Part shown: in pieces, positions 1 to 16,616 of the stretch
How the letters are laid out: the number at the start of each line of letters is the position of its first letter
How positions within the stretch are numbered: position 1 is the first letter of the stretch
Source: Deltaproteobacteria bacterium
Lineage (GTDB): Bacteria > Desulfobacterota > Dissulfuribacteria > Dissulfuribacterales > UBA5754
DNA length: 64,000 nucleotides
Direction: 5' to 3'
Assembly (NCBI GenBank): GCA_036574075.1
Contig: JAINCN010000021.1
Coordinates: 64,652 to 128,651, forward strand
Translations under genes and position numbers: made by a program
The notes under the pieces: generated by a model
Database searches by the model: none
What the model was told of the DNA's origin: nothing
Seen by the model: the letters and a program-made list of their open reading frames with translations, nothing else

Positions 1-120
1 CATATCCGCAAGGGTCACTCCCTCGACCTCGCCGCAGAAACCCCTCGGGTTTCCCTTAGGAAACGGGAAATCCCCGCATCCCTTTGGAATATCCAGAGTC
101 ACCCTCGAGGCAGCGTTCAT
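1..120 (-). CDS. hypothetical protein, 5' end only (continues off the left edge)
   Basis: The ATG at 120-118 overlaps the TGA stop of the upstream CheB-like gene (ATGA at 117-120). The frame MNAASRVTLDIPKGCGDFPFPKGNPRGFCGEVEGVTLADM stays open to position 1. No motif recognised. Confidence 0.3.
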   Translation of the reverse strand, partial: MNAASRVTLDIPKGCGDFPFPKGNPRGFCGEVEGVTLADM

Positions 121-1244
121 GGCCTGCTCCACTCCTGGATGACCGCTACGAGTTCGGGCAGGAGCCCAGAGCGGGCCTCCACGGCATCCATGACGCTGCG
201 GACGAGGAAAGGAGAAAGGCAGGTATCGGGCCGCTGGACCCAGATCCTCCCCCCTATACGCTCGACTTCCCGGGCCCCGGAGACCCCCTCTTGCAAATCC
301 CCTGAAAGATAGATGGCCAACGTCCCTTCGCTGAAGTGTTCGCTTGCGGAAAAGAGAAGGAGATCCAGGGGGCCTTCGCGATCAGAGAGATTCGTGCGTC
401 TGGTCACCCGCAGGGTCAGTCTGTCCCCAATTTGCTCAAAGGAGGAAATTTCGTCAGCAGATACGAAATAGGCACATCCTCGCTGGATCACGTCCCGGTC
501 ACGGACTCTCCTGAGGGGAAAGGGGGTATATGTCTGGAGATATTCGATAAAAGAATCGAGATACTGGCTAGACATACCAGCTACGACGATGATTGGCTCG
601 CGGGGCGGTACGGTAAAGGCCGGGAAAAGGCCCAGAAGCGAGGCGTATCCGCCAGTGGATGTCCCAATGACGGACACCCCGGCGGGATATCCCGTTTTCC
701 CTGCTGCTTCGAAAGACGGCGACCTAACGGCCGACCTTCCGAGTCTAAGGTAACGTGCAGCCCCCATGCTCACACCTGCAGCCCTCTTCACCTTCATTCT
801 CAGGACAGTCTTCTGCGCTTCCAGGTCCTCGCCTGATTCCTGGGACGGCTTCTGGAAAAAATCAACCGCGCCATAACGCAGGGCGTCAAATGTGATCCGT
901 GCGCCTTCCGAGGTAAAGGCGCTCACCATGAGGGCAGGCAACGGAGAACGTATCATGATGTGCTTGAGGAGGGTGATGCCGCTCATGCCAGGCATATTTA
1001 CATCAAGCGTACACACATCGACGTCACACCGGGCAAGTCTATCCATGGCCGATTGGCCGCTCATGGCCGTTCCGACCACCTGGATCTCGTCGTCATCCGA
1101 AAAGATCCTCTCAAGTACCTTGCACATCAAGGGTGAGTCATCCACGATGAAGACCCGTGTCCTTTTCCCTTTCTCCGGCCGAACAGTCGCGTCTGCAGCG
1201 CACTCCATGCAAGTCCTCCTCATATGCCTTATGAGATATGGCAA
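117..1244 (-). CDS. CheB-like response regulator (REC plus methylesterase-like domain; triad His apparently absent)
   Basis: 375-aa ORF. N-terminal receiver: VFIVDDSPLMCKVLERIF...CTLDVNMPGMSG...KP. C-terminal domain has a GTSTGG nucleophile-type motif, as in CheB GASTGG. AGM occupies the position where CheB has QHM. Confidence 0.8.
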   Translation of the reverse strand: MPYLIRHMRRTCMECAADATVRPEKGKRTRVFIVDDSPLMCKVLERIFSDDDEIQVVGTAMSGQSAMDRLARCDVDVCTLDVNMPGMSGITLLKHIMIRSPLPALMVSAFTSEGARITFDALRYGAVDFFQKPSQESGEDLEAQKTVLRMKVKRAAGVSMGAARYLRLGRSAVRSPSFEAAGKTGYPAGVSVIGTSTGGYASLLGLFPAFTVPPREPIIVVAGMSSQYLDSFIEYLQTYTPFPLRRVRDRDVIQRGCAYFVSADEISSFEQIGDRLTLRVTRRTNLSDREGPLDLLLFSASEHFSEGTLAIYLSGDLQEGVSGAREVERIGGRIWVQRPDTCLSPFLVRSVMDAVEARSGLLPELVAVIQEWSRP

Positions 1245-2230
1245 GGTCCGTCAGACCCCAGGCCCGTCCTCCCACAGGCCGACAGATAAAGCCTGCGCCC
1301 AAAGGCGCCTATCCTTGCCGACACGTCCCTGTCCACGACAAAACGCCTTGCAAGGGGATCGAAGACGTTTCCATCCGCTCCCTCCACGCCGAGCCGGACG
1401 AACATAACGGGCGGATCCGGGCGACAGGAAAGATTCCGTGCGTACTCGATGAAATCAAAGAAGGTCTCTTTGAGACGGAAGCATCCCCCCCCATTCGCTT
1501 CTATTCCCCTAAAACGTGCCCATGGGGCGAGGTAGCAACCGGCCACGCAAATCTCGTCGATCTCTGTGCAACAATACACGGGCCATGCGAAAACATCCTT
1601 GAGTCCAGCCCCGTAGGACCTGACGAGTTCCGGCACCATGTCGAGATGGGCCAAAACCGCAAGGGGCAGGTTTACATCCAGCTGGGAAAGGATCCTCATG
1701 AACTCCGCAGCACCGCCCTTGCCAACCGCTATCACGACCACCCCTGCTGCATGGTGATCCCTCCATCCCCTATCGCCAGCATGGAGGTGCAATCGGGCGC
1801 GCCTGATCTGGGCCGGCTCCACACCGGCGGCGATTTTCACGATCCGGGCCAGGGACTCGGCCTGTTCGTGGATATCGAGGGAGATGGTCCCGGAGGGTTT
1901 TGGGAAAAAATCCACGGCCCCGAGCCTCAGGGCATCCAGGGTGATTGCGCTCCTGTGGGCAAGTCCGCTCACCATGACCACGGGTTTGGGATACCTCACC
2001 ATGATATGCTTCATGGCCGTGATCCCGTCCATGACGGGCATGTCCACGTCAAGGGTGATGACATCAGGGTCGAGAATGGCGACCGCCTCCAAGGCCTCGA
2101 GCCCGTGCCGTGCCACACCCGCAACCTCTATCTCATTATCTCTCGAAAGGATCTCCACGAGGGCGCGCCTCATGAAGGAGGTATCGTCCACAACAAGTAC
2201 ACGGATCTTGCGTGCTGGCGCCTCAGGCAT
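1229..2230 (-). CDS. CheB-like response regulator paralog with degenerate active site (nucleophile Ser replaced)
   Basis: 333-aa ORF. Receiver: RVLVVDDTSFMRRAL...ITLDVDMPVMDG...KP. The C-terminal domain aligns by eye to the CheB fold, but the nucleophile motif is IAVGKGG (no Ser). AHLD and GADG-like positions are retained. It overlaps the next gene by 16 nt. Confidence 0.75.
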   Translation of the reverse strand: MPEAPARKIRVLVVDDTSFMRRALVEILSRDNEIEVAGVARHGLEALEAVAILDPDVITLDVDMPVMDGITAMKHIMVRYPKPVVMVSGLAHRSAITLDALRLGAVDFFPKPSGTISLDIHEQAESLARIVKIAAGVEPAQIRRARLHLHAGDRGWRDHHAAGVVVIAVGKGGAAEFMRILSQLDVNLPLAVLAHLDMVPELVRSYGAGLKDVFAWPVYCCTEIDEICVAGCYLAPWARFRGIEANGGGCFRLKETFFDFIEYARNLSCRPDPPVMFVRLGVEGADGNVFDPLARRFVVDRDVSARIGAFGRRLYLSACGRTGLGSDGPCHIS

Positions 2231-3092
2231 TGAGCACCCCCGACCATTGCTCTATGAGAAGGTCCTTGTCCTGGCGGAGGCGAAGGGCGATCTTCTTTAC
2301 CGTCTCTGGAGCGAGCCCGAGGGATCTCGGAACGAGCACCTTGTCCACCTCGCCATTTATGGTCCAACCGATGCCGAGTTTCTGACACAGGACATCGGCG
2401 AGAAATACTACGCCTACGGCGACCTCGTGGCATCCTGCTCCCTGGGGTCTGTGGTGATAGCGAAGGACATTCGCGAAAAAATCGCTGAGCCCCCACGAGG
2501 CGGCGAGATAGGCCCCAAGCTCGCCGTGGGTGAGTCCGAAGCGTTCCTCGGCCTCGATGAGGGTGATGCCATCCCTCTCCCTGATAGCAAGGATTTCTCC
2601 CAGTTCGTCAGGGAAATACCGGCAGAGGAGAAATCTCCCCAGGTCGTGTATGAGCCCGGCGGTGAAGATTTCGTTAGCATCCACGCCGGGCATGTTTTCT
2701 GCGATCATCTTTGAGGCCTTCGCAACCCCGATGGAGTGGAGCCATAGATCCCGCACGGCGAATCCCTCCATGTCTGCATACCCGGAAAACGCGGATATCA
2801 AAGACAGTCCGATGACGAGGTTTCTGACCTCCTCGAGGCCAAGCACCACTACCGCACGGGCAACGCTGTTGATCCTGCCGGCACCACCGTAGTACGGGGA
2901 GTTCGCAAGGCGGAGGATCTTCATGGTAAGGACGGGATCCTGCGCGACGATCCGTTCAATGTCGAGGGCTGTAGTGCTCTCCATGTCGAGAACATCAAGG
3001 ACCTGGTGGAACGTATGGGGAATCGGAGGAAGATCTTCCCGCAGGTCGAGCCGCTCCGTGTAGGAAACCCCCATGGACATGGACGAGCCCAT
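2223..3092 (-). CDS. HDOD domain-containing signalling protein
   Basis: 289-aa ORF. Typical HDOD N-terminus LPPIPHTFHQVLDVLDMESTTALDIERIVAQDPVLTMKILRLANSPYYG...VARAVVVLGLEEVRNL and HD-like HDLG. Overlaps the downstream CheB-like gene by 8 nt. Confidence 0.8.
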   Translation of the reverse strand: MGSSMSMGVSYTERLDLREDLPPIPHTFHQVLDVLDMESTTALDIERIVAQDPVLTMKILRLANSPYYGGAGRINSVARAVVVLGLEEVRNLVIGLSLISAFSGYADMEGFAVRDLWLHSIGVAKASKMIAENMPGVDANEIFTAGLIHDLGRFLLCRYFPDELGEILAIRERDGITLIEAEERFGLTHGELGAYLAASWGLSDFFANVLRYHHRPQGAGCHEVAVGVVFLADVLCQKLGIGWTINGEVDKVLVPRSLGLAPETVKKIALRLRQDKDLLIEQWSGVLNA

Positions 3093-3492
3093 CCCTTCTC
3101 ATGGATTTACCACTATTATCGACAGGGACGCGCCAGGACTTGAGAAGGGAGCGGATCGTGGCGGCCCTGCGCAAAAACCTGGTCGTTTCGGCCCCAAAAA
3201 ACGGGCAGGACTGATCACACTGCAAAAACCTCGAAATCTGATCCCACTCAAAAAGCCCTAGATGCAAGGCGCGAAATTTTCCAGGAATGAGGAGGGCGAA
3301 TCACGATTCGCCCCTACAGCGTACGCCGCATGGGCTGGAAAATTGAAGCAACGCCGCGAGAATCGGGTTTTTGAGCGGGATCAGGACTTAATCTTCCCCG
3401 CTTGGCTGTTCGATAAGAAAAATAACCCGCACCAGGGACCGGCATCACACGGGCCAACTCCACTCGAGAGGATCCATCCAAGGCAGGAACAA

Positions 3493-3897
3493 ATGAGCGA
3501 TTTTGTCCTTACCATACCTGTTCTCGAAAAGACCCGACGCGAGATCGAGAGCCACCTCATCGACGCAGGGGCACACACGGTCCTCATCGTAGACCAGGCA
3601 GGCAATATCATCACAAGCTGCGGCAAGACCAACAACAGCATCCAGGACTTCACATCCCTTGCCGCACTCACAGCGGCAAACTTTGCCGCGACCTCCCAGA
3701 TCGCCAGGCTCATCGGGGAGGACGACTTTTCCCTCCTTTTTCACAAGGGGAAAAAGGACAGCATCCATTTCACCCGACTCGGAGACGACTTCATCCTCGT
3801 CACTATCTTCGGGGATGACGTCTCCCTCGGCATCATTCGGCTCAAGATCTCTGAACTCATACATAGACTGTCTTCCATCCTCGGGATCAGCGTCTGA
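3493..3897 (+). CDS. mglB: Roadblock/LC7 family protein, MglB-like (putative GAP of MglA)
   Basis: Internal ATG at 3493 of the 3262-3897 ORF. Sequence MSDFVLTIPVLEKTRREIESHLIDAGAHTVLIVDQAGNIITSCG...FTSLAALTAANFAATSQIARLIG is Roadblock/LC7-like. The stop is 2 nt before the mglA start, matching the mglB-mglA order in Myxococcus. Confidence 0.8.
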   Translation: MSDFVLTIPVLEKTRREIESHLIDAGAHTVLIVDQAGNIITSCGKTNNSIQDFTSLAALTAANFAATSQIARLIGEDDFSLLFHKGKKDSIHFTRLGDDFILVTIFGDDVSLGIIRLKISELIHRLSSILGISV

Positions 3898-3899
3898 CC

Positions 3900-4523
3900 A
3901 TGGCCCTTATCGATCTGAGCAAGAAGGAAGTCCACTGCAAGATCGTCTACTACGGCCCGGGACGATGCGGGAAGACGACCAACCTCATCTATATCTATAA
4001 CGCTATGAGCGAAAAGACCCGGGGAAAGATGCTCACTATCGAGACAAAGGGAGACCGGACCCTGTTTTTCGATCTCCTGCCCATCAAACTCGGAAAGGTG
4101 GCAGGCTTTGACATCCGCATACAGCTCTACACTGTCCCGGGCCAGAGCATCTACGAGGCAACGCGAAAACTCGTCCTAAAGGGTGTGGACGGGATAGTTT
4201 TCGTGGCCGATTCCCTCAAAATCAGACAGCGCAAAAACATCGACAGCCTCCTCGAACTCACTCAGAACCTGAAGGAACTAAACCGCACCCCCTCCGAGAT
4301 TCCCCTTGTGCTCCAATACAACAAACGTGATCTCGTCACCTCGCCCATACCGACCCTCAGCATCGAGGAACTCGAGCGTGACCTCAACAACGGGCGGCGC
4401 CTCCCCTTTTTTGAGGCGGCGGCGATCAAGGGTATAGGGGTCTTTGAGACACTAAAGGAAATCAGCAAACAGACGGTCAGGCACGTGGCGAACAAGCATC
4501 TCTTCACCAAACCGTCTGGATGA
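3900..4523 (+). CDS. mglA: Ras-like small GTPase MglA
   Basis: 207-aa ORF. P-loop KIVYYGPGRCGKTTNL, MglA-specific switch II LYTVPGQ (instead of DxxGQ), NKRD guanine-specificity motif, LKGVDGIVFVADS. Close by eye to M. xanthus MglA. Confidence 0.92.
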   Translation: MALIDLSKKEVHCKIVYYGPGRCGKTTNLIYIYNAMSEKTRGKMLTIETKGDRTLFFDLLPIKLGKVAGFDIRIQLYTVPGQSIYEATRKLVLKGVDGIVFVADSLKIRQRKNIDSLLELTQNLKELNRTPSEIPLVLQYNKRDLVTSPIPTLSIEELERDLNNGRRLPFFEAAAIKGIGVFETLKEISKQTVRHVANKHLFTKPSG

Positions 4524-4565: not shown

Positions 4566-6236
4566 ATGAACGATAACACACCCATCCGTGACCAGGACGA
4601 TTTTCTAAATGAAATCGATGGATCGATCGACGCCCTTTTCGTTCCGACTCGACATATCGAGATCGATGCCCTGACAAACGAGATAAGAGAAAAGACGCCA
4701 CCGAACGATCCCTCCTCCGATGCATCCCCATCCCATCTGGAGGCCCATTCACCTGAAAACAGGGCTTCAGATACCCCCCTGACCCTCGAGCTGGAACCGG
4801 AGCCGGCATCCACGCCTGAGCAAGGCCCAAAGGAAGTCCCTTACGGAGACAACGGCCCAGCCCAAGAGGTGACTTCTTCGCTCAGCTCCCTTGACAGGCT
4901 CCGCCAAGGCATCCTTTCCATCGATTGGGAGATCTCGGACACCACTCTCAAGGAGGTGGAGCAATCCCTCGAGGCGATCGGCTCCAACGGGGCCTTTGCC
5001 GATTCAGCTGGGGCCCTTGGCATCATCGCCCTTCTCAAGGGTATATCCATGCAGCTCCGGAAGGATGTGTCCTCCCCCTCGACCCATATCGTTCGCGCCC
5101 TTCAGAAAGGGCTTACCGGGCTCGTCTCCATTGCAGAAGGACCGCCTGAAGACAGGGAAAAACGGATAGCCGCTCTCAGGGAAGAGCTCGAAAAGGTCAT
5201 GTTTCCCGCATCCGGCTTGGATATCGCCGAATCCGGCAGTACCCCCCAGGCCCCAGAACTGCAAAAAACCACTCCGCCACAGGGCGTTGACGCCATCTCG
5301 CTTGACATCGAACTGGAAGACGCCATCGATAAGGCCATACAGCCAAAAGCCGACACAAAGCCGATTATCGAGGCCCCTTTGCACCCCGTATCATCTGGCC
5401 CGCTGACTCAGGGTCTCTCCGCCTGCGTCCCCCCCCCACTCCTTACGCCGACCGAAACCATAGCCCATCCAGAGGGTGTCCTCGAGGCGGCCATCCTGGA
5501 ACACATCTCCCGCCTTAATAGGTGGATCGAGGGCATCCAGCCTATAGAAAGGCTTTTCTCCTCGACACGGGGCATGGAAAAGCTCAGCGCCTTCCATGCT
5601 AGGCTCATAGGAGACATGAGGCGCGAACGGGATCGCCTCGCTGGCATACTCGAAGGGAAAACTTATCAGGCGCCTGAACCCTCCTCCGCAGCACCTTCGC
5701 ATCCATCCGCCCCTGCAGCTCCTGTCAAATCGACGCAACCTGCCTCCCCATCCCCCTTGCCATGGAAAAATCTATGCGTCGTTTCCGGAAAAGAGGGCCT
5801 TATCGCACTGGTCCCTGAGGAAATCGCCTTTTCCGGCCCAAGCCCGTGGTGGGTCAGGCGCAAGGCATTTAAAGCCCGGAGCTTCCCCCTGAGGATGCTC
5901 AAACCCTGGCCATGGTCCCGCCTGAACACGCTTTTTACCGGAGAACTCGGAGAACTCGACGCCTCCGCCCTCTCATCAGCCGAGTTTCCCGTCCATCCGC
6001 TCACGCTCTCAGGAGAAAATGGCCCTGCGATTCCTCGGCGGCCCCACATCCTTGTCCTTTACGCACAAGGACGCGGATTGATCCTCTTTCTTGCAGTAGG
6101 CCCGAGGCCTTTTGCCCTCACGTCCGAATGGAGCTGGAATCCAGGCGATTCGTCCGAATCCGGCCCCATTGCCGGAGAACTCAGGCGCGGGGGGGAAGCC
6201 ATTCCTGTTCTGTCCGTCCGGAAAATCCTTACATAG
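4566..6236 (+). CDS. hypothetical Pro/Ser/Glu-rich protein with possible C-terminal CheW-like domain
   Basis: Strong SD GAAGGAG (4554-4560) lies 5 nt before the ATG at 4566; the ORF track starts at 4527. The long acidic/proline-rich linkers have no recognisable family. The last ~150 aa (LCVVSGKEGLIALVPEEIAF...PHILVLYAQGRGLILFLAVGP...IAGELRRGGEAIPVLSVRKIL) resemble the CheW beta-barrel pattern. Confidence 0.6.
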   Translation: MNDNTPIRDQDDFLNEIDGSIDALFVPTRHIEIDALTNEIREKTPPNDPSSDASPSHLEAHSPENRASDTPLTLELEPEPASTPEQGPKEVPYGDNGPAQEVTSSLSSLDRLRQGILSIDWEISDTTLKEVEQSLEAIGSNGAFADSAGALGIIALLKGISMQLRKDVSSPSTHIVRALQKGLTGLVSIAEGPPEDREKRIAALREELEKVMFPASGLDIAESGSTPQAPELQKTTPPQGVDAISLDIELEDAIDKAIQPKADTKPIIEAPLHPVSSGPLTQGLSACVPPPLLTPTETIAHPEGVLEAAILEHISRLNRWIEGIQPIERLFSSTRGMEKLSAFHARLIGDMRRERDRLAGILEGKTYQAPEPSSAAPSHPSAPAAPVKSTQPASPSPLPWKNLCVVSGKEGLIALVPEEIAFSGPSPWWVRRKAFKARSFPLRMLKPWPWSRLNTLFTGELGELDASALSSAEFPVHPLTLSGENGPAIPRRPHILVLYAQGRGLILFLAVGPRPFALTSEWSWNPGDSSESGPIAGELRRGGEAIPVLSVRKILT

Positions 6237-6254: not shown

Positions 6255-8570
6255 ATGAATCCTGAATCCATTAAAGCCCTTTTGTACGAGGCGGATCTTT
6301 ACGCCAGCCAAGGCCTCATCTCCGAGGCCCGTCAACTCTATGAAGAACTCCTCGCAAAGGCCGTAAACTATCCACCTCCCCTTGCCACGACCATCAAACA
6401 GAGGCTGGAGGCCCTCACAGGCACACGGACGCAGGCCGTTTCTGCCAACGGCCGCAATCGTCCCGCCCACGATGAAACGGATCGCCATCTCCAGAATGCC
6501 ATCGGCCTCATGGAAGCCGGCTTCCACCGAGAGGCCGTGAGCGAACTCAAGCTCATCCTCGACAAGGGTTATCCCAATGGGGAAATCCATCTCATGATCG
6601 CCGAGGCATATCTCGCCTCCAATCTTCCTTTCGATGCGGTGGATCACTTAGGAGAGGCACTGAAGGACACAAAACTCTCCCCAGAAAAACGCATGGAATG
6701 CCTCTACCGTGCCGCCATCATCCATGAGCAGCTCGGTATGATACCCCAGGCCATAGAAAAATTGAGGCAGATCGTGAGGATCGACCCCGGCTACAGAAAT
6801 TGCCGGGAGCGGCTGGACGGACTGACGCAAAGCGCCCAGAAATTCGGCCAGTACTATCCCCTGATCGCCAAAAATCTCCTGCAGGAAAGCCAGCTCGAGG
6901 AGGCGCGAAGCGCCGCTCGGGCAGGGGGAAAAACCATCGAATCCATCCTTATGACGAGATTTTCTATCGAAAAGGAGGAAATCGGCCGGGCGCTCAGCGA
7001 ATATTACCGCGTACCTTTTATCGAGTTTAACGAGCTCGAGGTGGGAACGGCGCCCGCCTGCATCAAGGGGGTCAAGGAACACTTCTTCCGGGCCAACACC
7101 TGTGTCCCTATCAAGGAAGAACGGGATGTCCTGCTCGTGGCACTCGACAACCCGAACGACCTCGTCAAGATCGACAACATAAAGCGCGTCCTCAAGGCCT
7201 CCCAGTTCGAATTCGCTGTGGCCCTAAAGGAAGACATCGACAAGTTCATCGACTTTTATTTCGGAAAGCTCAGCCTGGGTGGGAAGCAAGGAAACGTCTT
7301 CGATCAGCTGGAGATTTCCGAAGGGGAGGAGGTGGAGACGGATGATGAGGCATCCGACGCATCTGAAGCCGACAGCGTGGTTGTCCAGATGGCGAACACT
7401 ATCATCGAGGACGCCTTTGCAAAAAACGCCTCAGATATCCACATCGAGTCCCTAACCGGGAGGCGGGGGGCTGGAATCCGTCTGAGGATAGACGGCGACT
7501 GCATCCATTACCAGAACGTCCCCTATGAATACAAGCATGCCCTCATCTCCCGCATCAAGATCATGTCATCCCTTGACATCGCGGAAAAGAGGCTCCCTCA
7601 GGACGGAAAGATCAAATTCAAGACGCGACAGGGAAAGACCATCGAACTCCGGGTGGCGACCCTTCCCACCATAGAAGGCAACGAGGACGTGGTCCTTCGT
7701 ATCCTATCGGCATCTGAGGCTATGCCCCTCGACAAGATCGGCCTCATGCCGGATAACCTGGCGGCACTAAAGGATATCCTTGCCATGCCGTACGGCCTCA
7801 TCCTCGTAGTCGGCCCCACGGGTTCTGGAAAGACCACCACACTTCATGCCGCCCTCGGCCACATCAACCGCCCTGAAAAGAAGATCTGGACCGCAGAGGA
7901 TCCCGTGGAAATCGTCCAGGAAGGGCTCCGCCAGGTCCAGGTGAAGCCGGCTATAGGGCTAACATTCGCCCGGGTCCTTAGGGCATTTCTCAGGGCCGAC
8001 CCCGACGTCATCATGGTGGGTGAGACCCGGGATGAAGAAACGGCTACTACCGTTATCGAGGCCTCTCTCACCGGACACCTGGTCTTTTCCACACTCCACA
8101 CGAACTCAGCACCCGAGACGGTCACCCGGCTCCTCGGGATGGGCATGGACCCCTTCAACTTCTCGGACGCACTCCTCGGGATCCTTGCCCAGCGACTTGT
8201 AAAACGCCTCTGCACCAAGTGCAAGGAACCCTACACACCGGACAAGGACGAGATCCAACGACTCATAACGGAATACGGCTCGCACCCATCGAGGCCCCTC
8301 GATCCATCCCGATTCGCATCGGCGACTCTCTACCGGGCGAAGGGCTGCCCATTCTGTAACAACACAGGCTACAAGGGGCGCCTTGCCATCCACGAACTCC
8401 TCATTTCGAACGACGAGTTGAAGAGGCTCATTCAGGAAAAGAGACCGGTCTACGAGATCGCGGATGCCGCCCTGAGGGCGGGCATGCTCACCTTGAAGCA
8501 GGACGGCATCCTGAAGATCCTTTCCGGCGACACCGATATCAAACAGGTCCGCTCGGCATGCATCAAGTAG
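6255..8570 (+). CDS. GspE/PilB-family type IV pilus / T2SS assembly ATPase with N-terminal TPR extension
   Basis: 771-aa ORF. About 200 aa of N-terminal TPR-like repeats (LYASQGLISEARQLYEELL, MEAGFHREAVSELKLIL, GMIPQAIEKLRQIVRIDP). Then a GspE_N-like region, Walker A GPTGSGKTTTL, Asp/His boxes, and a tetracysteine motif CTKCKEPY...CPFCNNTGYKGR. Confidence 0.9.
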   Translation: MNPESIKALLYEADLYASQGLISEARQLYEELLAKAVNYPPPLATTIKQRLEALTGTRTQAVSANGRNRPAHDETDRHLQNAIGLMEAGFHREAVSELKLILDKGYPNGEIHLMIAEAYLASNLPFDAVDHLGEALKDTKLSPEKRMECLYRAAIIHEQLGMIPQAIEKLRQIVRIDPGYRNCRERLDGLTQSAQKFGQYYPLIAKNLLQESQLEEARSAARAGGKTIESILMTRFSIEKEEIGRALSEYYRVPFIEFNELEVGTAPACIKGVKEHFFRANTCVPIKEERDVLLVALDNPNDLVKIDNIKRVLKASQFEFAVALKEDIDKFIDFYFGKLSLGGKQGNVFDQLEISEGEEVETDDEASDASEADSVVVQMANTIIEDAFAKNASDIHIESLTGRRGAGIRLRIDGDCIHYQNVPYEYKHALISRIKIMSSLDIAEKRLPQDGKIKFKTRQGKTIELRVATLPTIEGNEDVVLRILSASEAMPLDKIGLMPDNLAALKDILAMPYGLILVVGPTGSGKTTTLHAALGHINRPEKKIWTAEDPVEIVQEGLRQVQVKPAIGLTFARVLRAFLRADPDVIMVGETRDEETATTVIEASLTGHLVFSTLHTNSAPETVTRLLGMGMDPFNFSDALLGILAQRLVKRLCTKCKEPYTPDKDEIQRLITEYGSHPSRPLDPSRFASATLYRAKGCPFCNNTGYKGRLAIHELLISNDELKRLIQEKRPVYEIADAALRAGMLTLKQDGILKILSGDTDIKQVRSACIK

Positions 8571-8698: not shown

Positions 8699-9289
8699 TC
8701 AGAATCGTATGTATAAGCTAGCGATGTTTCCGGAAGCCGGTGCGTAGGCAGCAGTTGCCACCACGGAACCCGTGTCATAGACGGCGTCATCGAGCTTGGT
8801 GTCTATCTCGAGGGCTACATCCCAAGGCAGGTTATCCAGTCTGAACCAGTGGTTCGGGGTGGCTGCAGCCGGTGGGGGATCCGTCCAGTAAAGAACGATG
8901 ATGTCACCGAATGGGTGCCTGGGCAGGGTGTTTGGCGTTCTGTCGTAATTTCCGGAGATGATCTCGGCGAGCTGGAGGTCCCGGAAGAGCCACAGGTATT
9001 CGTTTCCGTTGATCTGACCGTCTCCGTTTCCGGCGTTGTCATCATTGGCCGGGATCGTGTTACCGGCCCCTCCCAGGGCCTCGTCTCCTGGGTATTGGCC
9101 GTACCTGTCATAAAAGGTGAGGACCGCTGCCCTTATGCCGTCCACCTGTGCAATGGTCTTTTTGACCTTGGCCTGCTGGATGAGGGCCTGCCCCTTCATG
9201 ACCGCCCCGAGTATGAGCCCGATAATCACAAGTACCATGGCCAACTCTACCAGCGTGAATCCCCTCTGCCCTTTCATGATGCGTTCCAT
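8699..9289 (-). CDS. prepilin-type N-terminal cleavage/methylation domain protein (candidate major pilin/pseudopilin)
   Basis: 196-aa ORF. Leader MERIMKGQRG followed by FTLVELAMVLVIIGLILGA (G-1/F+1/E+5 class III signal). SD AAGGAGG lies upstream. Confidence 0.85.
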   Translation of the reverse strand: MERIMKGQRGFTLVELAMVLVIIGLILGAVMKGQALIQQAKVKKTIAQVDGIRAAVLTFYDRYGQYPGDEALGGAGNTIPANDDNAGNGDGQINGNEYLWLFRDLQLAEIISGNYDRTPNTLPRHPFGDIIVLYWTDPPPAAATPNHWFRLDNLPWDVALEIDTKLDDAVYDTGSVVATAAYAPASGNIASLYIRF

Positions 9290-9354
9290 TTCCTTCGTAC
9301 CTCCTTTTTTTGATATTTGGATGGTTCGGATGCCATCCTGATATTCTTAGATAC

Positions 9355-10647
9355 TTATCGGTCTCGGACCCCTGTTGCTGTAAAACTCACTTGGCAGTCA
9401 CCATCTGCATCGGCCGATGCAGCCTGGCTGTAGGTTATTGTTGTCCGGGGTTGGAAGTTACAGGTTCCTAGTCTCGAGAATTGCTGGATGCTTCCCCCGC
9501 TGTTGAGACGCATCGAGTCGGTCGTGATCTCGCGGTTGTGACCGATATCATCCCTGCAGTGCCCATTATTGAACAGGAAGTCTGCCGTGAATCTCGTGAA
9601 GTTCCAGACCCTGATGCCCTGCGGGCACATCTGTGGCTGGCATGAGCCTGGATTTGAGCCTGCTGGATTGATGGTAATGACGAAATTCTTCGAGGCAATG
9701 TTGTCGTTTTCCCCGGATGGGTCGTTGTTGTCCCGGACGAAGATCCTCACAGGATATGTGCTCGATGTCCCCGCGGCAGGTGTGCCTTGGATGACGAGGC
9801 TTTTCGCCTGTCCCCAGGCGGCAGTGCCCTCGTCGGCGTGTGCGCAGTCCGAGCTCGTGGCGTTCGGGGTCAGGGAAAGTCCGTCGGGAACATCGCCCTG
9901 CACACTCCACTGCACACACCACTTGTACTCATTGCCGTCGGTGGTCTCGAACGGAACCCCTCCGTCGGCGATTACCTCTGCCATGTAGCTGTTTCCCTCG
10001 GAGCCGAACGGAAGTTCGTTGTTTACGATCCTAAGGGCCGGACCCACGCATCCCGCCTTGATCCTGAGTTCGTCGAGGGTGATCCAGGTAACGAGATCGT
10101 CGAAGGATTCGTTTCTTGACATATCGGCGGAATAGCCGTCAAGGTCAGGCGTCCCTGTGTCCCAGACCCTGATGCAGGTCTTTCCGGCGGGGCACCCCGC
10201 GAAGGCCCCTGTTCCCAACTGGATGTTCATGTTCTCGCCGCCGCTTGCAAGCACGAAGGCGGCGTTCTGGACGATGCGCGGGGTCGTGCATGCGGGGTCG
10301 GCCCCGCACTGGATGACCGACAACCCCGTGCTACTCCTCCCGCAGATATCAGGGGTGGTAAGGAGGCCGTCCGGGACGTAGAGAAGGTCCTTTTTCCATG
10401 AATCGCCCATGGTGCGGGCCACTGACGGGATCTCGGCCAAGGTGGGGATCTCCTTGTGTAGGGCGGCGTAGCTTACCACCCCTTCGGCAGCAGCGGCAAG
10501 GGTGTCTTTGGTCTCGTTCGTCTTTATCCGCTTGATCATGGGGCTGATCATGCCGGCACCAAGACCTGTCAGGATCCCGATGACAACAAGGATGATCGCC
10601 ATCTCGATAAGGGTGAACCCAGCATTTCGGGTGCGGTATGTTGGCAT
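9355..10647 (-). CDS. large pilin-like protein: prepilin N-terminus fused to Cys-rich and Ig-like (He_PIG-type) domains
   Basis: 430-aa ORF. MPTYRTRNAG/FTLIEMAIILVVIGILTG prepilin signal. Internal segment LRIVNNELPFGSEGNSYMAEVIADGG...DGLSLTPN...LVIQGTPAAGTSSTYPVRIFVRDNND matches the putative-Ig-domain pattern. About 14 Cys residues. Confidence 0.8.
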   Translation of the reverse strand: MPTYRTRNAGFTLIEMAIILVVIGILTGLGAGMISPMIKRIKTNETKDTLAAAAEGVVSYAALHKEIPTLAEIPSVARTMGDSWKKDLLYVPDGLLTTPDICGRSSTGLSVIQCGADPACTTPRIVQNAAFVLASGGENMNIQLGTGAFAGCPAGKTCIRVWDTGTPDLDGYSADMSRNESFDDLVTWITLDELRIKAGCVGPALRIVNNELPFGSEGNSYMAEVIADGGVPFETTDGNEYKWCVQWSVQGDVPDGLSLTPNATSSDCAHADEGTAAWGQAKSLVIQGTPAAGTSSTYPVRIFVRDNNDPSGENDNIASKNFVITINPAGSNPGSCQPQMCPQGIRVWNFTRFTADFLFNNGHCRDDIGHNREITTDSMRLNSGGSIQQFSRLGTCNFQPRTTITYSQAASADADGDCQVSFTATGVRDR

Positions 10648-10648
10648 T

Positions 10649-11461
10649 TCAGTGGCCCTCCCTTGTCATTGTTTTGGCAAGTTCCAGGTTGTACCTGATG
10701 TCTTCGTCGTCAGGGGCAATACTTATGGCCTCCTCGAGGATCTTCCTCGCCTCGTCTGGTCTTTTCAGCATGATCAAGGTGGCTGCAAGGTTGTTACCGA
10801 TCACCGGGTCTTTTTCCCGGCGCCATGCGGCCTGGTAAATCCGGCAGGCCTCTTCGATCCTACCCTGGCTGATCATAGCCTGCGCCTCCATGACGTCTGG
10901 GATGGGAGTCTCCTCTGCCTCGCTCATTTGGGCCTTCTTTTGGCTGGCAGGCGCCTGAAGAGCGGTCAGCTTGTCGGGGATGCGGATCTCCGCATCGGGC
11001 AAAGGCGCCTTGGCCGGCGGTTCATCGACTGCAGGAAGCAGTTTTGTCTCTCTGGAGTCCCGGGTTCCGATCCCGGATCCGGATTCGGACGGTATCGAGG
11101 GTTTCGGATCGTTGGATGCCGGCATGGATGATGCTGGAGGAGCATCCGCCAGTTGCTGCTGAACAGGGGGTGATGACGAGGGAGGCGATCCGGCATCGTT
11201 TCGGATGGCCCTGTCTGACGTCTCTGTTGTCTGTAGAGGCCGGAGGGTCTCACTGTTCATGCGTAGTTTCGAGGTGTCGATCCCCGAGACCGCCACTATG
11301 GCCAGGATCCCTGCCCCTGCAATGACGCCTACTGCGATAGACGAAAGGATCCAGGGGCCCTTCCATCGCCTTTTGGTCCTTTCCCTGAGGGCGAAGGGGG
11401 GCGGGTCTGCGCCGTGTTTCCTGGCCTCTATCCGGGAGATGGCATCAAACAGCCTGCTCAT
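10649..11461 (-). CDS. membrane-anchored TPR protein (MshN-like pilus biogenesis component)
   Basis: 270-aa ORF. One TM segment (WILSSIAVGVIAGAGILAIVAV), a Pro/Ser-rich linker and C-terminal TPR repeats (GRIEEACRIYQAAW..., DEARKILEEAISIAPDD). Positioned between the secretin and the pilins. Confidence 0.65.
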   Translation of the reverse strand: MSRLFDAISRIEARKHGADPPPFALRERTKRRWKGPWILSSIAVGVIAGAGILAIVAVSGIDTSKLRMNSETLRPLQTTETSDRAIRNDAGSPPSSSPPVQQQLADAPPASSMPASNDPKPSIPSESGSGIGTRDSRETKLLPAVDEPPAKAPLPDAEIRIPDKLTALQAPASQKKAQMSEAEETPIPDVMEAQAMISQGRIEEACRIYQAAWRREKDPVIGNNLAATLIMLKRPDEARKILEEAISIAPDDEDIRYNLELAKTMTREGH

Positions 11462-13121
11462 GGCCCATGACCTGTATCTGGAAAATGATCACCAGCTCGA
11501 CACGCTGGGAAGATTCCACATTGTGCCTGAAAGCAGGACCGATCACGGGAAGGGAGCCCAGGACCGGCACACCTACCCTGTTTTCCTTCTTTTTGTCCTG
11601 GATGAGGCCTCCGAGCATGAGTATCTCACCCGGCCTGGCCCGTACTACTGTAGATGCCTCTCTCAGGTTGACCCGAGGGAAGGTATAGCGATTTCCTCCG
11701 GTGAATTCGCGCTCCTCGAGGGAGATGAGGTCGCTCTTTATGGGCACGATATGGAGGTTCACGGTCCCGTCTGCCTCTATGATGGGGGTGATCCCAAGGA
11801 GCACGCCATCGAAGATGGAGCTTATCTCCACGTTTGTATCGGTGGTGGTAAGGTTGTCCCCGGATGTGGTCTCCTGCTCAAGGCTCCTTAGATACGAGAC
11901 CGACTGGCCCACGCTTATGACTGCTGACTGACCGTTCATGGCCTTCAGCCTGGGGTTTGAGAGGGTCTTGAGTGTCCCGTATTCCTCAAGGGCCTTGAAC
12001 ATGAGGCCGACGTCATAATAGCGCTGGGAGAGGTTCAGGCCGTACAGGAAGCCCGACTCCGTGATGTTGCTCGTCATGGTGAAGAGGGCCCCGGTATCCT
12101 TGAGCGCGTCCTTGCTGATGGTGAGTTCAAGCCTCCTCCAGTCGATGCCAAGTTCGTGTCCCTTGGAGAGCTCCACCTCAATGATCTTGGCCTCGATGAG
12201 GACCTGCCTTCTGTATTTTTCCCTCAGCGCATCGAGGTATGTGGCGATCTCCTCAAGGATCCGCGGCCGGGCCCTCACGAGAAGGGTGCCGGTCTGGCGG
12301 TTCAGGAAAAAGGTCCCTTCCTCCCCAAGCCTGGCCTTCACGGCGTTTTCTATCCCTGTGTATATATCGGTGACCGCGTCGGTCGTCTGTCCGGAAAGCT
12401 CGAAGTCTCCAGTGAGCGGGGTGAGGACGTTTTCGCTCCCTTCGCCGCCGCCCCCTCCACCACCGCCGCTGCTCCTGCCACCGCCTCCCCCGAGGACATC
12501 ACCGCCCACGGTGAACCGTGACTGAGGGACCGTGCCCAGGAATTCCAGGTGAAAGAGCCTCTGCGAGGTCCCGTGTATGTAAATGGTGCCCTCAGAATAG
12601 CTCCAGGAGATGTCCATGGCCTTTGTGACAGAGTCCAGGACCTCGCGCACAGGCCGTTCCTGGTAAACGGCAGTGAGGGTAGTCTTGTCACCGAGCATCT
12701 CGTCCACCTCCGGCCCGATCATGAGGTTTGCGCCTGCAGCATGCGCAAGGGCGTGGAGGATGTTCTTGTAGTTTTCATCGACGAAGGTTATAGAGACGAA
12801 CTTCGCGTCGAGGGGGGTTATGGTCTTGAATCGCGGCTGAGCAGAAGAGAGGTTTTTCTTGTGTTCAGGCCTGGTATCGGCAGGGAAAGGGGCATTGAAC
12901 CCCGATTGCGCTCCCAGGTCTTCAGGCATGGGACGCTCGCCCGTGCCGCCCTGCTGCCTGGCGCTGTCAGGGTGAGGCCCCAACCCGGCATTCATAGGTG
13001 CGCAGGCAGAAAACAGTGCCACAGAAAGGGCAAGCGCAATAAAGGGCAGTCCGCTTGTAAAGGTCTTTAAGGCAGACAGTTGCCTGGGCCGTCCGACTAT
13101 GACGTTTCGATGATGTCTCAT
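11445..13121 (-). CDS. secretin (MshL/PilQ/GspD family outer-membrane channel)
   Basis: 558-aa ORF. Secretin core QVLIEAKIIEVELS...NPRLKAMNGQSAVISVGQ...GEILMLGGLIQDKKKENRVGVPVLGSLPVIGPAFR...ELVIIFQIQV. Contains a Gly-rich insert GGGGGRSSGGGGGGGGEGSE. Confidence 0.9.
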   Translation of the reverse strand: MRHHRNVIVGRPRQLSALKTFTSGLPFIALALSVALFSACAPMNAGLGPHPDSARQQGGTGERPMPEDLGAQSGFNAPFPADTRPEHKKNLSSAQPRFKTITPLDAKFVSITFVDENYKNILHALAHAAGANLMIGPEVDEMLGDKTTLTAVYQERPVREVLDSVTKAMDISWSYSEGTIYIHGTSQRLFHLEFLGTVPQSRFTVGGDVLGGGGGRSSGGGGGGGGEGSENVLTPLTGDFELSGQTTDAVTDIYTGIENAVKARLGEEGTFFLNRQTGTLLVRARPRILEEIATYLDALREKYRRQVLIEAKIIEVELSKGHELGIDWRRLELTISKDALKDTGALFTMTSNITESGFLYGLNLSQRYYDVGLMFKALEEYGTLKTLSNPRLKAMNGQSAVISVGQSVSYLRSLEQETTSGDNLTTTDTNVEISSIFDGVLLGITPIIEADGTVNLHIVPIKSDLISLEEREFTGGNRYTFPRVNLREASTVVRARPGEILMLGGLIQDKKKENRVGVPVLGSLPVIGPAFRHNVESSQRVELVIIFQIQVMGHEQAV

Positions 13122-13582
13122 GGGATCCTCTCTCCCGATCTTATGAAGATCGACTGTTCCCCAGTGTCCACGGTCACCCCGTTTCCAGTGATGGATTTTA
13201 TCCTTAGCCCGGCGATCTCCTGGCCCTCATGCAAGATGTTTCCCTCGATGATGCAGAAACGGTCCGATCCGGTCACGGCCACGAGGCCAAGACTCAGGTC
13301 ATGCGCGACCCCTTCAGGTTCGGGTGGGGCGACAGGGATCGGCCTTTGATCCAGAAAGCCGAAGGGGTCGAGGGCGCCGATCCCTTCGATCTCCGTCTTT
13401 TCGGGAGACGCGGGCGCAAGCGCGGCAGGAAGTTGGGGCATGGCCTGGAATCCACGCGGGTGAGAACGGTAGGCCTGGGCGTTGAAGAGCATGACGAGAA
13501 GCGCGGTTGCCGCAGCAATGAATCCCGCCATAGGCAGGCAGACCGCAATCCATCTGACCGCCGGGTTCATGGAGCGAGACAC
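13118..13582 (-). CDS. pilus assembly protein, PilP/MshK/GspC-like (weak)
   Basis: 154-aa ORF with an N-terminal TM segment (WIAVCLPMAGFIAAATALLVMLF) and a C-terminal beta-rich segment RFCIIEGNILHEGQEIAGLRIKSITGNGVTVD. Call rests on position upstream of the secretin. 4-nt overlaps on both sides. Confidence 0.45.
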   Translation of the reverse strand: MSRSMNPAVRWIAVCLPMAGFIAAATALLVMLFNAQAYRSHPRGFQAMPQLPAALAPASPEKTEIEGIGALDPFGFLDQRPIPVAPPEPEGVAHDLSLGLVAVTGSDRFCIIEGNILHEGQEIAGLRIKSITGNGVTVDTGEQSIFIRSGERIP

Positions 13583-14037
13583 AGGAGATACCCCCGTATG
13601 CGGTATTCGAGGTGTCTGTCATCGTTCGTTTCGCCGGCCATGGCAGTTTTGATCCCGGCCTTTGCAGGTTCTTTTCTCGATGCGGAGAAGGAGACGGGGA
13701 CGAATACGCGGTCAGGGGCGCGCAAGGCGGAAAGACGGAGGACAAGCTCTGTAAAGGGCACATCCTGAAGGGTCATCTCCGTCTCCTGCCAAACTATAGC
13801 CGGGTTAGAGGTGAGATCCGGAAACGCGCCGCTGGTCCGTTCATCTCTGTTGGCCACATGGCGTTCGATTTCAGAGATGAGCTGTTCCTCCTTCAGGACG
13901 GCATCGAGGCCTGAGGCGAGTTCCTGTCTTTCCTTCCATGCAGCGACAAAAAACCAGATGGCGACGCAAAGGATCGACACCATTGCGGTCTGAAAAACAA
14001 TGGTTCTTGTCGGAGGGATGGGAGGGCCGTGGTTCAC
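13567..14037 (-). CDS. pilus assembly protein, PilO/MshJ-like (weak)
   Basis: 156-aa ORF with one TM segment (IVFQTAMVSILCVAIWFFVAAW) followed by a coiled-coil-like region. Operon position only. Confidence 0.45.
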   Translation of the reverse strand: MNHGPPIPPTRTIVFQTAMVSILCVAIWFFVAAWKERQELASGLDAVLKEEQLISEIERHVANRDERTSGAFPDLTSNPAIVWQETEMTLQDVPFTELVLRLSALRAPDRVFVPVSFSASRKEPAKAGIKTAMAGETNDDRHLEYRIRGYLLCLAP

Positions 14038-15503
14038 TGGTTCATCCTCATAGCGCCATTGCCGCGCGGAGAAATCGTGCAGGAGAGCACGCCCTCGGAC
14101 GTCTCTTCGGTGTAGCGTCTTTGGACGCGTTCGATGTCAAAGGCTGTCTGGAGGTTATGGATCGCGGCGTCCATCCGCTCGTTCGCCTCGCTAAAGGACG
14201 CAGAGGTGACGAGTTCGATTGCGATTTCCACGGGTTGGGCCAAGAGGGTGGCCGGGTCGCTGGAAACGAGATCCTGACCGGCGCTGTTCGCCATCCTAAG
14301 AGCCGGGGACGCGGCGGCCTTTGTCTCCCCGGATCCCTGGAGACCTTGGACAGCCCGGTTCAGGTCCATTTTTTTGATCTTCACCCCGTCAGGGAGCCTG
14401 TTTGCGAGGGTGACAAGGATCTCGTCCAGCCCGTGCTCGGCCCTGGCCCTGTTCCAGATGGCTGCAAGACGTTCGCGGGCCTCCCGTTCCGGTTGCGGCG
14501 GGAGTGTCTCCTCGATGAGCCGTCTTTTTGCCTCAACTTCCCGGGTACGATTGGCCAGATCGGCCTCAAGGGAAGAGTTCGTCCGCGCAAGGACAAGGGT
14601 GCCCGCAAGCAAAAGGGCGATTGCAGGAAGCGCGGCAAGGCTCGCCCATTTTGATACCTTCCCGATCGCGTAGGCCATCTTCCAGTCTTTAGGCACGAGA
14701 TCGTAGGCCGGGTCGGCGAACGCCACACCAAAGAGGTCAGGATGATCGTCCACCAGAGAAGGGTCCTGGACGTCCAGGATGGAATCCCACGCCGGTTGCA
14801 GGATATTCCGGCCGCCGAGCATGGCTGGGCACGAGCGCCGTTGCGGGCCGGTGGCGATGAAATGGCTGATATCGAGATCGTACTGCCTACGGGCCGTCTG
14901 GCTGACCATGTCGAAGGTCTGGGCCAGCATCGACTCCCGGAGGGATCCGTCCGTGTCAAGGGGGACAATCTGGGCGTGGAGAAGGACCGCGCCTGAAACA
15001 ACCATGATTTCAAGGAGTTCTTTATGGAAGATGGCAACGAGGACAGGTTCCTGGGTGAGGCGTCCCACGAGCCCGGCGATCGAGGCATGGCTGGGGATAA
15101 GGCCCGTGAGCCTCCATTCGCGCGCGCCGTGGCCGAGTTCCAAAATGGGTGCTACATCGCTTTCAGGCAGGGTGAGGACGGAGAGAATCTGATTTCCTGA
15201 GGCAGTGGTGCCGAGGGCCTTTATGCGATGGGCCACAGCCTGGCCTTCCGGCCACAGACCGCTCTGGCGGATCCGCTCAAGGACGCGGAGATTGAGGATT
15301 TCTTGTTTCGTTTTCGGGAACACTTCCCTGAAGATATGGATCTTCCTTGACGGGATGGTAACGGTCACTTCACCTGCGTTTACAGGCGCAGGGCCATGGA
15401 TCTCCTCGATCTGTCCGAAAGACGGCCTGTTAGGCGGTCCAGTGACGCGGACCCTGAGCCACGTCCCTCTTTCCTTTCCGGGTTTTGCGTAAAAACGGCC
15501 CAT
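14034..15503 (-). CDS. fused PilM-like / PilN-like pilus assembly protein (MshI-like)
   Basis: Start moved to the ATG at 15503 (MGRFYAKPGKE...) because the upstream part of the 15641 ORF lies inside the repeat element. About 330 aa cytoplasmic domain, a TM segment (WASLAALPAIALLLAGTLVLA), then coiled-coil and periplasmic domains. Confidence 0.55.
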   Translation of the reverse strand: MGRFYAKPGKERGTWLRVRVTGPPNRPSFGQIEEIHGPAPVNAGEVTVTIPSRKIHIFREVFPKTKQEILNLRVLERIRQSGLWPEGQAVAHRIKALGTTASGNQILSVLTLPESDVAPILELGHGAREWRLTGLIPSHASIAGLVGRLTQEPVLVAIFHKELLEIMVVSGAVLLHAQIVPLDTDGSLRESMLAQTFDMVSQTARRQYDLDISHFIATGPQRRSCPAMLGGRNILQPAWDSILDVQDPSLVDDHPDLFGVAFADPAYDLVPKDWKMAYAIGKVSKWASLAALPAIALLLAGTLVLARTNSSLEADLANRTREVEAKRRLIEETLPPQPEREARERLAAIWNRARAEHGLDEILVTLANRLPDGVKIKKMDLNRAVQGLQGSGETKAAASPALRMANSAGQDLVSSDPATLLAQPVEIAIELVTSASFSEANERMDAAIHNLQTAFDIERVQRRYTEETSEGVLSCTISPRGNGAMRMNQ

Positions 15504-15538
15504 TCTGGTTCTTTCGGCCTCAAGGCGTTTGCAAGAAG

Positions 15539-16602: not shown

Positions 16603-16616
16603 GGCCCCCTTATCCC

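Follow-up and report, generated by a model that had tools for sequence, protein, structure and literature searches.

A TPR-fused PilB-class ATPase encoded with MglB and MglA in Thermodesulfobacteriota: a candidate GTPase-switched motor with a degenerate c-di-GMP site

In Myxococcus, the GTP-bound form of the Ras-like polarity protein MglA binds a three-repeat unit of the tetratricopeptide repeat (TPR) protein SgmX, upstream of the pilus motor PilB (PMC7668184), and in Bdellovibrio MglA binds another TPR protein, Bd2492 (PMC3983030). The step from SgmX to PilB in Myxococcus is explicitly described as unresolved, with no direct contact detected, and PATAN proteins co-occur with SgmX (PMC11580455). 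PATAN genes are found only occasionally near mglA, and group 1 neighborhoods are variable (Wuichet and Sogaard-Andersen, PMC4316618). In Synechocystis, a PATAN domain binds the N-domain of PilB1, and a helical unit, the alpha-clip, is common to PATAN and PilB N-termini (bioRxiv 10.1101/2021.06.11.447907). Here we describe a gene in which a TPR module is fused to a PilB-class ATPase, at positions 6255 to 8570 of a 64,000-nucleotide stretch (the window) of contig JAINCN010000021.1, from a deltaproteobacterium of the Dissulfuribacterales. It is the last gene of a four-gene plus-strand operon that begins with mglB and mglA. A full-text literature search, with most subscription journals outside its scope, found no published description of such a fusion or of this cassette. 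The fusion and the cassette are what is new; both kinds of component, PilB-class motors and MglA-binding TPR effectors, are already known, and the system is not categorically new.

The reading that we prefer, and to which we give an even chance, is that the protein (hereafter TPR-ATPase) is a PilB-class extension motor switched by MglA and MglB through its fused TPR module, its input from cyclic di-GMP (c-di-GMP) having been lost. An original prediction, made from the letters of the window, had singled the protein out as the second of two pilus-type ATPases encoded there, TPR-regulated and without a working c-di-GMP motif. The gene and its domains are as follows.

6255 to 8570, plus strand: gene for the TPR-fused PilB-class ATPase, stop codon included (open reading frame of 771 amino acids, aa; Pfam and NCBIfam domains; more than 120 full-length homologs)
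6255 to 6824, plus strand: TPR module, residues 1-190 (Pfam TPR families, helices of the AlphaFold2 model, Foldseek, invariant residues)
6837 to 7007, plus strand: degenerate MshEN_N four-helix bundle, residues 195-251, the putative former c-di-GMP site (NF053729 below cut-off, no motif, modeled helices)
7008 to 7265, plus strand: MshEN_C/T2SSE_N alpha-beta subdomain, residues 252-337 (Pfam PF05157, Foldseek)
7365 to 8567, plus strand: ATPase core, N2D plus CTD, residues 371-771 (Pfam T2SSE; Walker, Asp, His and zinc motifs)

The TPR array named in the original prediction is genuine. Several Pfam TPR families match above cut-off (TPR_2 at residues 148-179, 30.9 bits against 27; TPR_19 at residues 2-39; TPR_6; TPR_14), and the AlphaFold2 model contains nine TPR-type helices, at residues 3-56 and 72-176, amounting to about 4.5 repeats. 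About 1.5 of these lie in the first segment and three in the second, at values of the predicted local distance difference test (pLDDT) of about 75 to 86, with a disordered loop at 58-70. Foldseek matches this part of the model to the TPR domain of P58(IPK), and in the family alignment residues E12, Y16, G20, L21, A25, G84, L85, A88, G89, E93 and A94 of the module are invariant. A single long helix, residues 180-205, caps the TPR module and is continuous with the first helix of a four-helix bundle, which extends to residue 251 and is followed by an alpha-beta subdomain modeled at residues 275-335. Pfam model PF05157 (MshEN/T2SSE_N) covers residues 251-337 with 50.4 bits (E = 2e-13), and Foldseek aligns the modeled N-domain to that of Vibrio cholerae MshE in its c-di-GMP-bound form, 5HTL_B (template-modeling score 0.68, target-normalized; root-mean-square deviation 3.5 Å over 133 columns), and also to PilF GSPII-B. 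The model and the Pfam match thus point to the two-subdomain MshEN fold, a four-helix bundle plus an alpha-beta subdomain, as in MshE. Mean pLDDT is 71.7, with values of about 75 to 88 across residues 1-335. Residues 535-614 (window positions 7857-8096), running from the Asp box to the His box, are modeled at a very low pLDDT of 25-45 despite near-invariance among family members; a shallow alignment of low diversity, rather than disorder, probably explains this.

All catalytic motifs are intact. The T2SSE model covers residues 371-765 (E = 1e-118), within which are found Walker A, GPTGSGKT, at 520; the Asp box, EDPVE, at 548; Walker B, DPDVIMVGETRD, at 582; and the His box, TGHLVFSTLH, at 606. 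The zinc motif consists of the cysteine pairs CTKC at 653 and CPFC at 698. Walker A and B, the Asp box, the His box and both CxxC pairs (C653, C656, C698 and C701) are invariant across 46 aligned homologs. Full-length homologs, which fall into more than 120 clusters, range from 767 to 849 aa in length and from 57 to 92% in identity; their sources are Thermodesulfobacteriota, Dissulfurimicrobium, Dissulfurirhabdus and a few bins of Nitrospiraceae. Three shorter sequences of 609-652 aa, P0109, P0111 (from Dissulfurirhabdus thermomarina) and P0119, begin at an internal methionine (MPFDA) that lies within a TPR helix. They were considered as TPR-less variants and rejected as such, since a start inside a TPR helix indicates miscalled start codons.

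The bundle was compared with the strict MshEN motif, a tandem pair of 24-residue elements of the form RLGxx(L/V/I)(L/V/I)xxG(L/V/I)(L/V/I)xxxxLxxxLxxQ separated by a 5-residue spacer, and with the relaxed pattern of Wang et al. 2016 (PMC5013675), scored over 11 positions per motif. The register was set by ungapped HMMER alignment to Myxococcus xanthus PilB and V. cholerae MshE. M. xanthus PilB is a biochemically confirmed c-di-GMP binder. At the diagnostic positions TPR-ATPase reads as follows.

Motif positions 1-3: consensus RLG; TPR-ATPase motif I GQY, motif II TIE
Motif position 10: consensus G; TPR-ATPase motif I N, motif II F
Motif position 24: consensus Q; TPR-ATPase motif I A, motif II Y

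A pattern scan of TPR-ATPase finds neither the strict nor the relaxed motif. Motif II retains 7 of the 11 relaxed positions, and the best 24-residue window, which is out of register, retains 8 of 11. The NCBIfam model for the MshE-type motif pair, NF053729, gives 18.4 bits against a cut-off of 38, and by HMMER the N-domain reaches 26 bits against V. cholerae MshEN, where the other ATPase of the window, 548 aa in length, reaches 68. The claim first made from a peptide corresponding to residues 203-250, that the RLG, the central G and the terminal Q are gone from both motifs, is therefore borne out. It extends to the family: the relaxed motif occurs in 0 of 120 members. Loss of c-di-GMP binding by TPR-ATPase is accordingly a prediction from motif content. 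Absence of the motif is in itself not unusual, as Escherichia coli GspE and HofB and Vibrio EpsE also do without it.

The pattern of conservation suggests something other than decay. Hydrophobic core positions 6, 7, 11, 12 and 17 of the motifs are retained across the family, and the positions that contact the ligand, R1, G3, G10 and Q24 of each motif, are replaced, with G198, E229, F236 and Y250 as invariant or near-invariant substitutes. The full set of conserved substitutes in the bundle is G198, R199 (Q in the window protein), F200, E229, F236, K240, G244 and Y250. Since the substitutes are themselves conserved, purifying selection for a different function is indicated, and the surface of the bundle looks re-purposed rather than decayed. 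TPR-ATPase differs in this respect from MshE, whose R1, L2/G3, G10 and Q24 it has replaced in both motifs, and from the PilB proteins of M. xanthus and Geobacter, which keep the c-di-GMP motifs; of the two ATPases in the window, the 548-aa one is MshE-like by sequence.

By its core, TPR-ATPase belongs with the extension-type motors. Residues 196-771 align end to end with residues 9-557 of M. xanthus PilB (397 bits by phmmer), and phmmer against sequences of known structure gives 395 and 386 bits for Geobacter PilB, 391 for Thermus PilF, 336-342 for GspE and about 110 for PilT. Relative to PilB (M. xanthus 3JC8, Geobacter 5TSG/5ZFR, Thermus PilF), this region is collinear, with all domains and the zinc motif present and the core 45-50% identical; what sets TPR-ATPase apart is an extra 190-aa TPR module and a place beside mglBA rather than beside pilT and pilC. 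Foldseek matches the core to Geobacter PilB and GspE with E = 1e-33, the PilB, PilF and GspE structures being 36-46% identical to it, and those of Geobacter PilB and Thermus PilF 45-46%. The features of the PilB/GspE-class superfamily, namely the catalytic motifs, the tetracysteine zinc motif and full-length alignment over N2D and CTD, are all present. GspE shares the zinc motif and, like TPR-ATPase, lacks the c-di-GMP motifs; its core is 46-49% identical, yet TPR-ATPase scores higher to PilB (395-397 bits) than to GspE and fails the GspE equivalog model TIGR02533. GspE binds GspL through its N1E domain and is encoded within gsp operons. No gsp genes occur in the conserved neighborhood of TPR-ATPase.

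PilT and PilU are proteins of about 350 aa that have neither the N1 domain nor the tetracysteine zinc motif. TPR-ATPase falls short of the PilT model TIGR01420 (177 bits against 319). A retraction-type, PilT-like identity was considered and is ruled out by the score of about 110 bits to PilT, the extension-class scores, the zinc motif and the outgroup position of PilT in a tree. This was a small neighbor-joining tree of 19 sequences, with references taken from PDB alignments and three E. coli genes and without full-length MshE, in which PilT forms an outgroup clade and the TPR-ATPase family a separate clade among the extension-type ATPases. Core identity to the window protein is 74-85% within the family, 46-50% for PilB, PilF and GspE, 42% for the 548-aa ATPase and 33-37% for PilT. 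Taken together, these sequence comparisons place TPR-ATPase as an extension-class motor of a distinct subfamily.

The gene is found in a conserved cassette, mglB-mglA-X-TPR-ATPase, whose other members and flanking genes in the window are listed here.

3493 to 3897, plus strand: mglB-like Roadblock/LC7 gene, about 134 aa (Pfam Robl_LC7; NCBIfam MglB at 54 bits, below cut-off)
3900 to 4523, plus strand: mglA, Ras-like polarity GTPase, 207 aa (E = 2e-61 to M. xanthus MglA structures, full length)
4566 to 6236, plus strand: ORF X (open reading frame X), 556 aa, cassette-specific (an ORF between mglA and the ATPase gene in 69 of 69 loci)
2223 to 3092, minus strand: HDOD protein, divergent from the cassette (Pfam HDOD, E = 4e-56)
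117 to 2230, minus strand: two REC-CheB-like response regulators (Pfam Response_reg and CheB_methylest), the end of a chemosensory (Che)-like cluster

The called mglB reading frame, 3262-3897 (211 aa), is over-extended relative to homologs of 129-133 aa, and the start is probably the ATG at 3493 (MSDFVL); ORF X probably begins at 4566 and not at 4527. MglA retains the P-loop GPGRCGKTT, the arginine of DRTLFFD and the LYTVPGQ motif, and thus both the catalytic R and the catalytic Q; from its sequence, the GTPase is a genuine MglA. TPR-ATPase combines TPR repeats with genomic association to a bona fide MglA, two of the attributes expected of an MglA-GTP effector of the SgmX/Bd2492 type.

A locus scan with one genome per species, using the N-terminal 371 residues as the query, returned 80 loci, spanning Desulfurivibrio, Hydrosulfovibrio, Desulfobulbaceae, Dissulfuribacterales, Thermodesulfatator-like bins, SEEP-SRB2 and others. 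Complete or isolate genomes with the cassette include those of Desulfurivibrio dismutans AMeS2, Desulfurivibrio sp. D14AmB, Hydrosulfovibrio ferrireducens and Dissulfurirhabdus thermomarina. Among the 65 Thermodesulfobacteriota loci with at least 3.5 kb of upstream sequence, mglA is found upstream on the same strand at fixed spacing in 64 and mglB in 63. The interval between mglA and the ATPase gene holds one ORF in 69 of 69 loci (179-678 aa, and at least 323 aa in all but one locus). It had been considered that the protein might instead cluster with ordinary PilB proteins that carry such extensions without linkage to mglA; what is observed is a clade of its own and linkage to mglA at nearly every locus. 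The near-constant presence of mglBA suggests a motor that is switched by a GTPase rather than by a nucleotide messenger.

Further upstream, the conserved neighborhood is chemosensory in character. The divergent HDOD gene is present in 38 of 58 loci, and beyond it in annotated relatives are genes for two REC-CheB proteins, a PATAN-REC-CheB protein, a REC protein and CheA-CheW (L001, 1-6773; L003, 1-7046; L004, 1-7188); the window begins within this cluster, so that only its HDOD and two REC-CheB genes are included. It is unusual for one such cluster to encode three CheB-like response regulators. Of 43 long loci, 37 encode a PATAN regulator no more than 10 kb from the ATPase. The Desulfurivibrio clade carries a REC-PATAN (DUF4388) gene directly 3' of the TPR-ATPase gene, as at 12381-13508 on the plus strand of locus L074 from D. 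dismutans and in about 27 other loci, and this arrangement stands in place of the HDOD/Che layout. At locus L060, the ATPase gene sits between CarD and pseudouridine-synthase genes and a downstream priA, and an HDOD gene is found about 3 kb upstream there too. The proximity of PATAN-REC genes recalls the PatA-type PATAN-REC protein and PilB1 of Synechocystis, with two differences: the association here is one of gene position, and many of the regulators near TPR-ATPase bear an extra CheB-like domain.

ORF X finds no sequence or profile match in Pfam, NCBIfam or PDB. Word-indexed homolog searches, with the single sequence or a profile, recover just two or three proteins, probably because of low-complexity linkers, and an exhaustive HMMER search of 1.84 billion proteins finds homologs in 86 representative clusters, of similar lengths. 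A model built from 68 sequences shows four confident units (AlphaFold2 pLDDT 90-97) joined by disordered, proline-rich linkers: a conserved N-terminal peptide, a helical bundle at 105-212, a helical hairpin at 302-362 and a C-terminal beta domain at 395-556. Foldseek relates the beta domain weakly to CheW and CheA-P5 (E of about 1e-3, template-modeling score 0.5-0.56) and the helical bundle weakly to CheA P1/Hpt domains (E = 0.03, score 0.64). The likeness to CheW was not confirmed by hhalign of ORF X against a single CheW, which returned a probability of 5.6%. Tentatively, the modeled folds suggest for X the role of a CheA-like scaffold without a kinase domain, which may connect MglA or the motor to chemosensory arrays.

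The mechanism that we propose would run as follows. MglA-GTP would bind the fused TPR module and recruit or activate the motor at one cell pole, and MglB would turn MglA off. Che-like signaling would enter via the PATAN regulators, and protein X, with its putative CheW-like domain, may take part. The motor would power extension of a type IV filament whose structural genes sit elsewhere in the genome, with GTPase control taking over from c-di-GMP control. We infer the binding of MglA to the TPR module, the roles of PATAN proteins and X, and the filament that is served. A wider form of the proposal, in which the cassette is a self-contained polarity-to-motor module where a Ras-like GTPase gates a PilB-class ATPase via the fused TPR module and chemosensory input arrives through X and PATAN, is more tentative, and we give it somewhat less than an even chance. 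The closest precedents are SgmX and Bd2492, where a TPR module is likewise tied to MglA and a PilB-class motor. Here the tie is made by fusion and a shared mglBA operon, whereas SgmX and Bd2492 are free-standing and encoded apart from mglA, and TPR-ATPase has about 4.5 repeats against the 14 of SgmX.

Immediately downstream of TPR-ATPase, and convergent with the cassette at a distance of about 130 bp in the window, is an operon for a machine like the mannose-sensitive hemagglutinin (MSHA) pilus, which includes the second ATPase.

17819 to 19465, minus strand: 548-aa MshE-like ATPase of the MSHA-like machine (NF053729 and 5HTL matches; motif region residues 7-59, nucleotides 19289-19447)
8699 to 17819, minus strand: remaining MSHA-like, type II secretion system-like operon (Pfam and NCBIfam matches)

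The members of this operon include a GspF/PilC-like protein (16617-17819), an AAA_22 ATPase resembling ExeA and MshM, proteins of 535, 156 and 154 aa, a secretin of the MshL type, a TPR protein, a 430-aa pseudopilin and a 196-aa pilin. At 247.2 bits, the secretin falls just short of the MshL cut-off of 250.2, and the 535- and 156-aa proteins match no family in Pfam or NCBIfam. In NCBIfam, the AAA ATPase comes closest to the PEP-CTERM-associated ATPase model TIGR03015 (232 bits, short of its cut-off), and the 430-aa pseudopilin has a weak Ig-like (He_PIG) match. The remaining content of the window consists of housekeeping genes.

The 548-aa ATPase scores 58.9 bits to NF053729 (cut-off 38) and 67.6 bits to V. 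cholerae MshEN 5HTL. It had been described as having both c-di-GMP motifs intact, which is slightly overstated: motif II (RLGDCLLRIGFVSDSDLARVIAEQ) is complete, but motif I (QIGKLLFESGLVRENQIEFALTEQ) keeps 10 of 11 relaxed positions, beginning with QIG rather than RLG (residues 7-13, window 19447-19427). Neither the published relaxed set for position 1 (R/K/P/N) nor the extended one (R/K/L) includes glutamine. Because K or L is tolerated at this position, with nanomolar binding of c-di-GMP kept in PilF GSPII-B (PMC11731258), binding by the 548-aa ATPase is still plausible and makes a fair prediction from its motifs. The broader statement, that only one of the window's two ATPases is credible as a c-di-GMP receptor, agrees, at the level of sequence, with NF053729, the motif scan and the MshEN alignment alike.

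No PilT-like protein is encoded in the 64-kb window, as originally noted; phmmer of the ATPase core against six-frame ORFs finds just the two ATPases, a result that applies to the window and not to the remainder of the genome. By tblastn, the 10-kb flanks of 85 related loci contain no match to pilin, PilC/GspF, PilT, PilB or secretin queries apart from locus L059, from a SEEP-SRB2 metagenome-assembled genome, the only other locus with filament-machine genes nearby. There, at 12486-15637 on the minus strand, a T2SSE-type ATPase (545 aa) and a secretin-like gene (473 aa) are convergent to the cassette. Locus L006, an 87%-identical relative, has unrelated genes downstream and no MSHA-like cluster. 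The MSHA-like machine next door was therefore rejected as the functional partner, its synteny with the cassette not being conserved. With no filament genes conserved nearby, the motor either acts in trans or does something else.

Several observations weigh against a GTPase-switched extension motor. TPR-ATPase reaches neither the PilB equivalog TIGR02538 (509.1 bits against a cut-off of 675.65) nor TIGR02533 for GspE (483.7 against 630.25). The deep nodes of the tree have bootstrap values of 34-42%, leaving the branching order unresolved; with a core only 46-50% identical to PilB, PilF and GspE, orthology to the PilB of type IVa pili is not established. One family member, at L060 (8460-14590), is alone in having no mglBA upstream. 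TPR repeats are generic binding modules, the binding of MglA to them is a prediction, and the parallel with SgmX and Bd2492 is drawn from TPR content and association with MglA, not from homology of TPR sequences. Conserved filament machinery is missing from the neighborhood, so that a role in pili is argued from family resemblance alone, just as the loss of c-di-GMP binding is argued from sequence alone.

The most serious competing explanation is that TPR-ATPase is an ordinary housekeeping PilB whose TPR module binds some other partner, such as X, a PATAN regulator, or PilM or PilC, and that adjacency to mglBA reflects no more than co-expression of motility genes. X and PATAN are linked to the ATPase as tightly as mglA is, direct contact between SgmX and PilB was not detected in Myxococcus (PMC11580455), and the c-di-GMP motif is missing to begin with from numerous proteins of the PilB and GspE kinds, such as GspE and HofB of E. 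coli and EpsE of Vibrio. Yet a fixed-order operon in 64 of 65 genomes from several orders exceeds what co-expression typically produces, the family stands as a separate clade that falls below the PilB equivalog cut-off, and the only experimentally known MglA partners in pilus control are TPR proteins (PMC7668184, PMC3983030); we regard this alternative as unlikely, though worth keeping in view. The suggestion first made for the window, that TPR-ATPase is a second extension motor on the MSHA-like machine or an antagonist substituting for PilT there, in competition with the 548-aa ATPase, draws on the two convergent gene sets about 130 bp apart, the lack of PilT in the window and the secretin-like gene and second ATPase convergent to the cassette at L059. 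It fares poorly against the wider set of loci: the adjacency is missing from other related loci, L006 included, the MSHA-like operon has an ATPase of its own, the two cores are only 42% identical, and the conserved partners are mglBA and X. An alternative extension motor for the neighboring machine is not supported, and a functional antagonist is unlikely for a protein with the extension-class features and zinc motif of PilB/GspE and with scores of 336-397 bits to that class against about 110 to PilT. As a whole, this explanation is improbable.

Two further alternatives concern what the bundle binds and what the motor moves. The remodeled bundle might still bind a nucleotide, whether (p)ppGpp, a dinucleotide other than c-di-GMP, or c-di-GMP itself bound differently: the fold is kept in the model, conservation of the substitutes is strong (G198, E229, K240, Y250 and, in most members, R199), and position 1 of the motif is plastic (PMC11731258). 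Each motif, however, has lost its Gly-3 backbone-amide donor, its turn glycine and its Gln-24 (roles in PMC5013675), and motif I has also lost one leucine of the hydrophobic clusters, L21 having become K or R. In addition, the invariant acidic E229 occupies the place of a glycine that contacted phosphate and guanine, and PilF GSPII-A, with a single degenerate motif, already fails to bind (PMC11731258). We consider nucleotide binding by the bundle highly improbable. Least probable of all, in our view, is that TPR-ATPase is not a filament motor and instead serves the MglA/Che module, in remodeling of polar or chemosensory assemblies, in gliding or in secretion. The ATPase is an orphan of filament genes in about 84 of 85 loci, and the CheW-like and P1-like folds modeled for X could tie it to chemosensory arrays. 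Nevertheless, it keeps all the catalytic and zinc-motif features of the PilB/GspE class and the MshEN_C/N1 subdomain, which contacts the inner-membrane platform in relatives, and pilB genes are in any case often unlinked from pilMNOPQ.

If the wider form of the proposal is correct, the protein would be a Rosetta-stone fusion, showing that the step from an MglA/SgmX-type TPR effector to PilB is a direct contact between TPR and motor, and that control of one N-terminal domain can pass from c-di-GMP to a GTPase. With about five proteins, the cassette makes a simpler setting for studying the link from GTPase to motor, the fusion being present in the mglBA operon in dozens of genomes. The family also provides a clean natural case of an MshEN fold kept under selection without predicted c-di-GMP binding, which helps to refine the rules by which receptors are predicted. 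It is widespread in sulfur-cycling Thermodesulfobacteriota, including Desulfurivibrio, Dissulfuribacterales and the SEEP-SRB2 partners of consortia, bacteria whose surface motility and pilus biology have been little studied.

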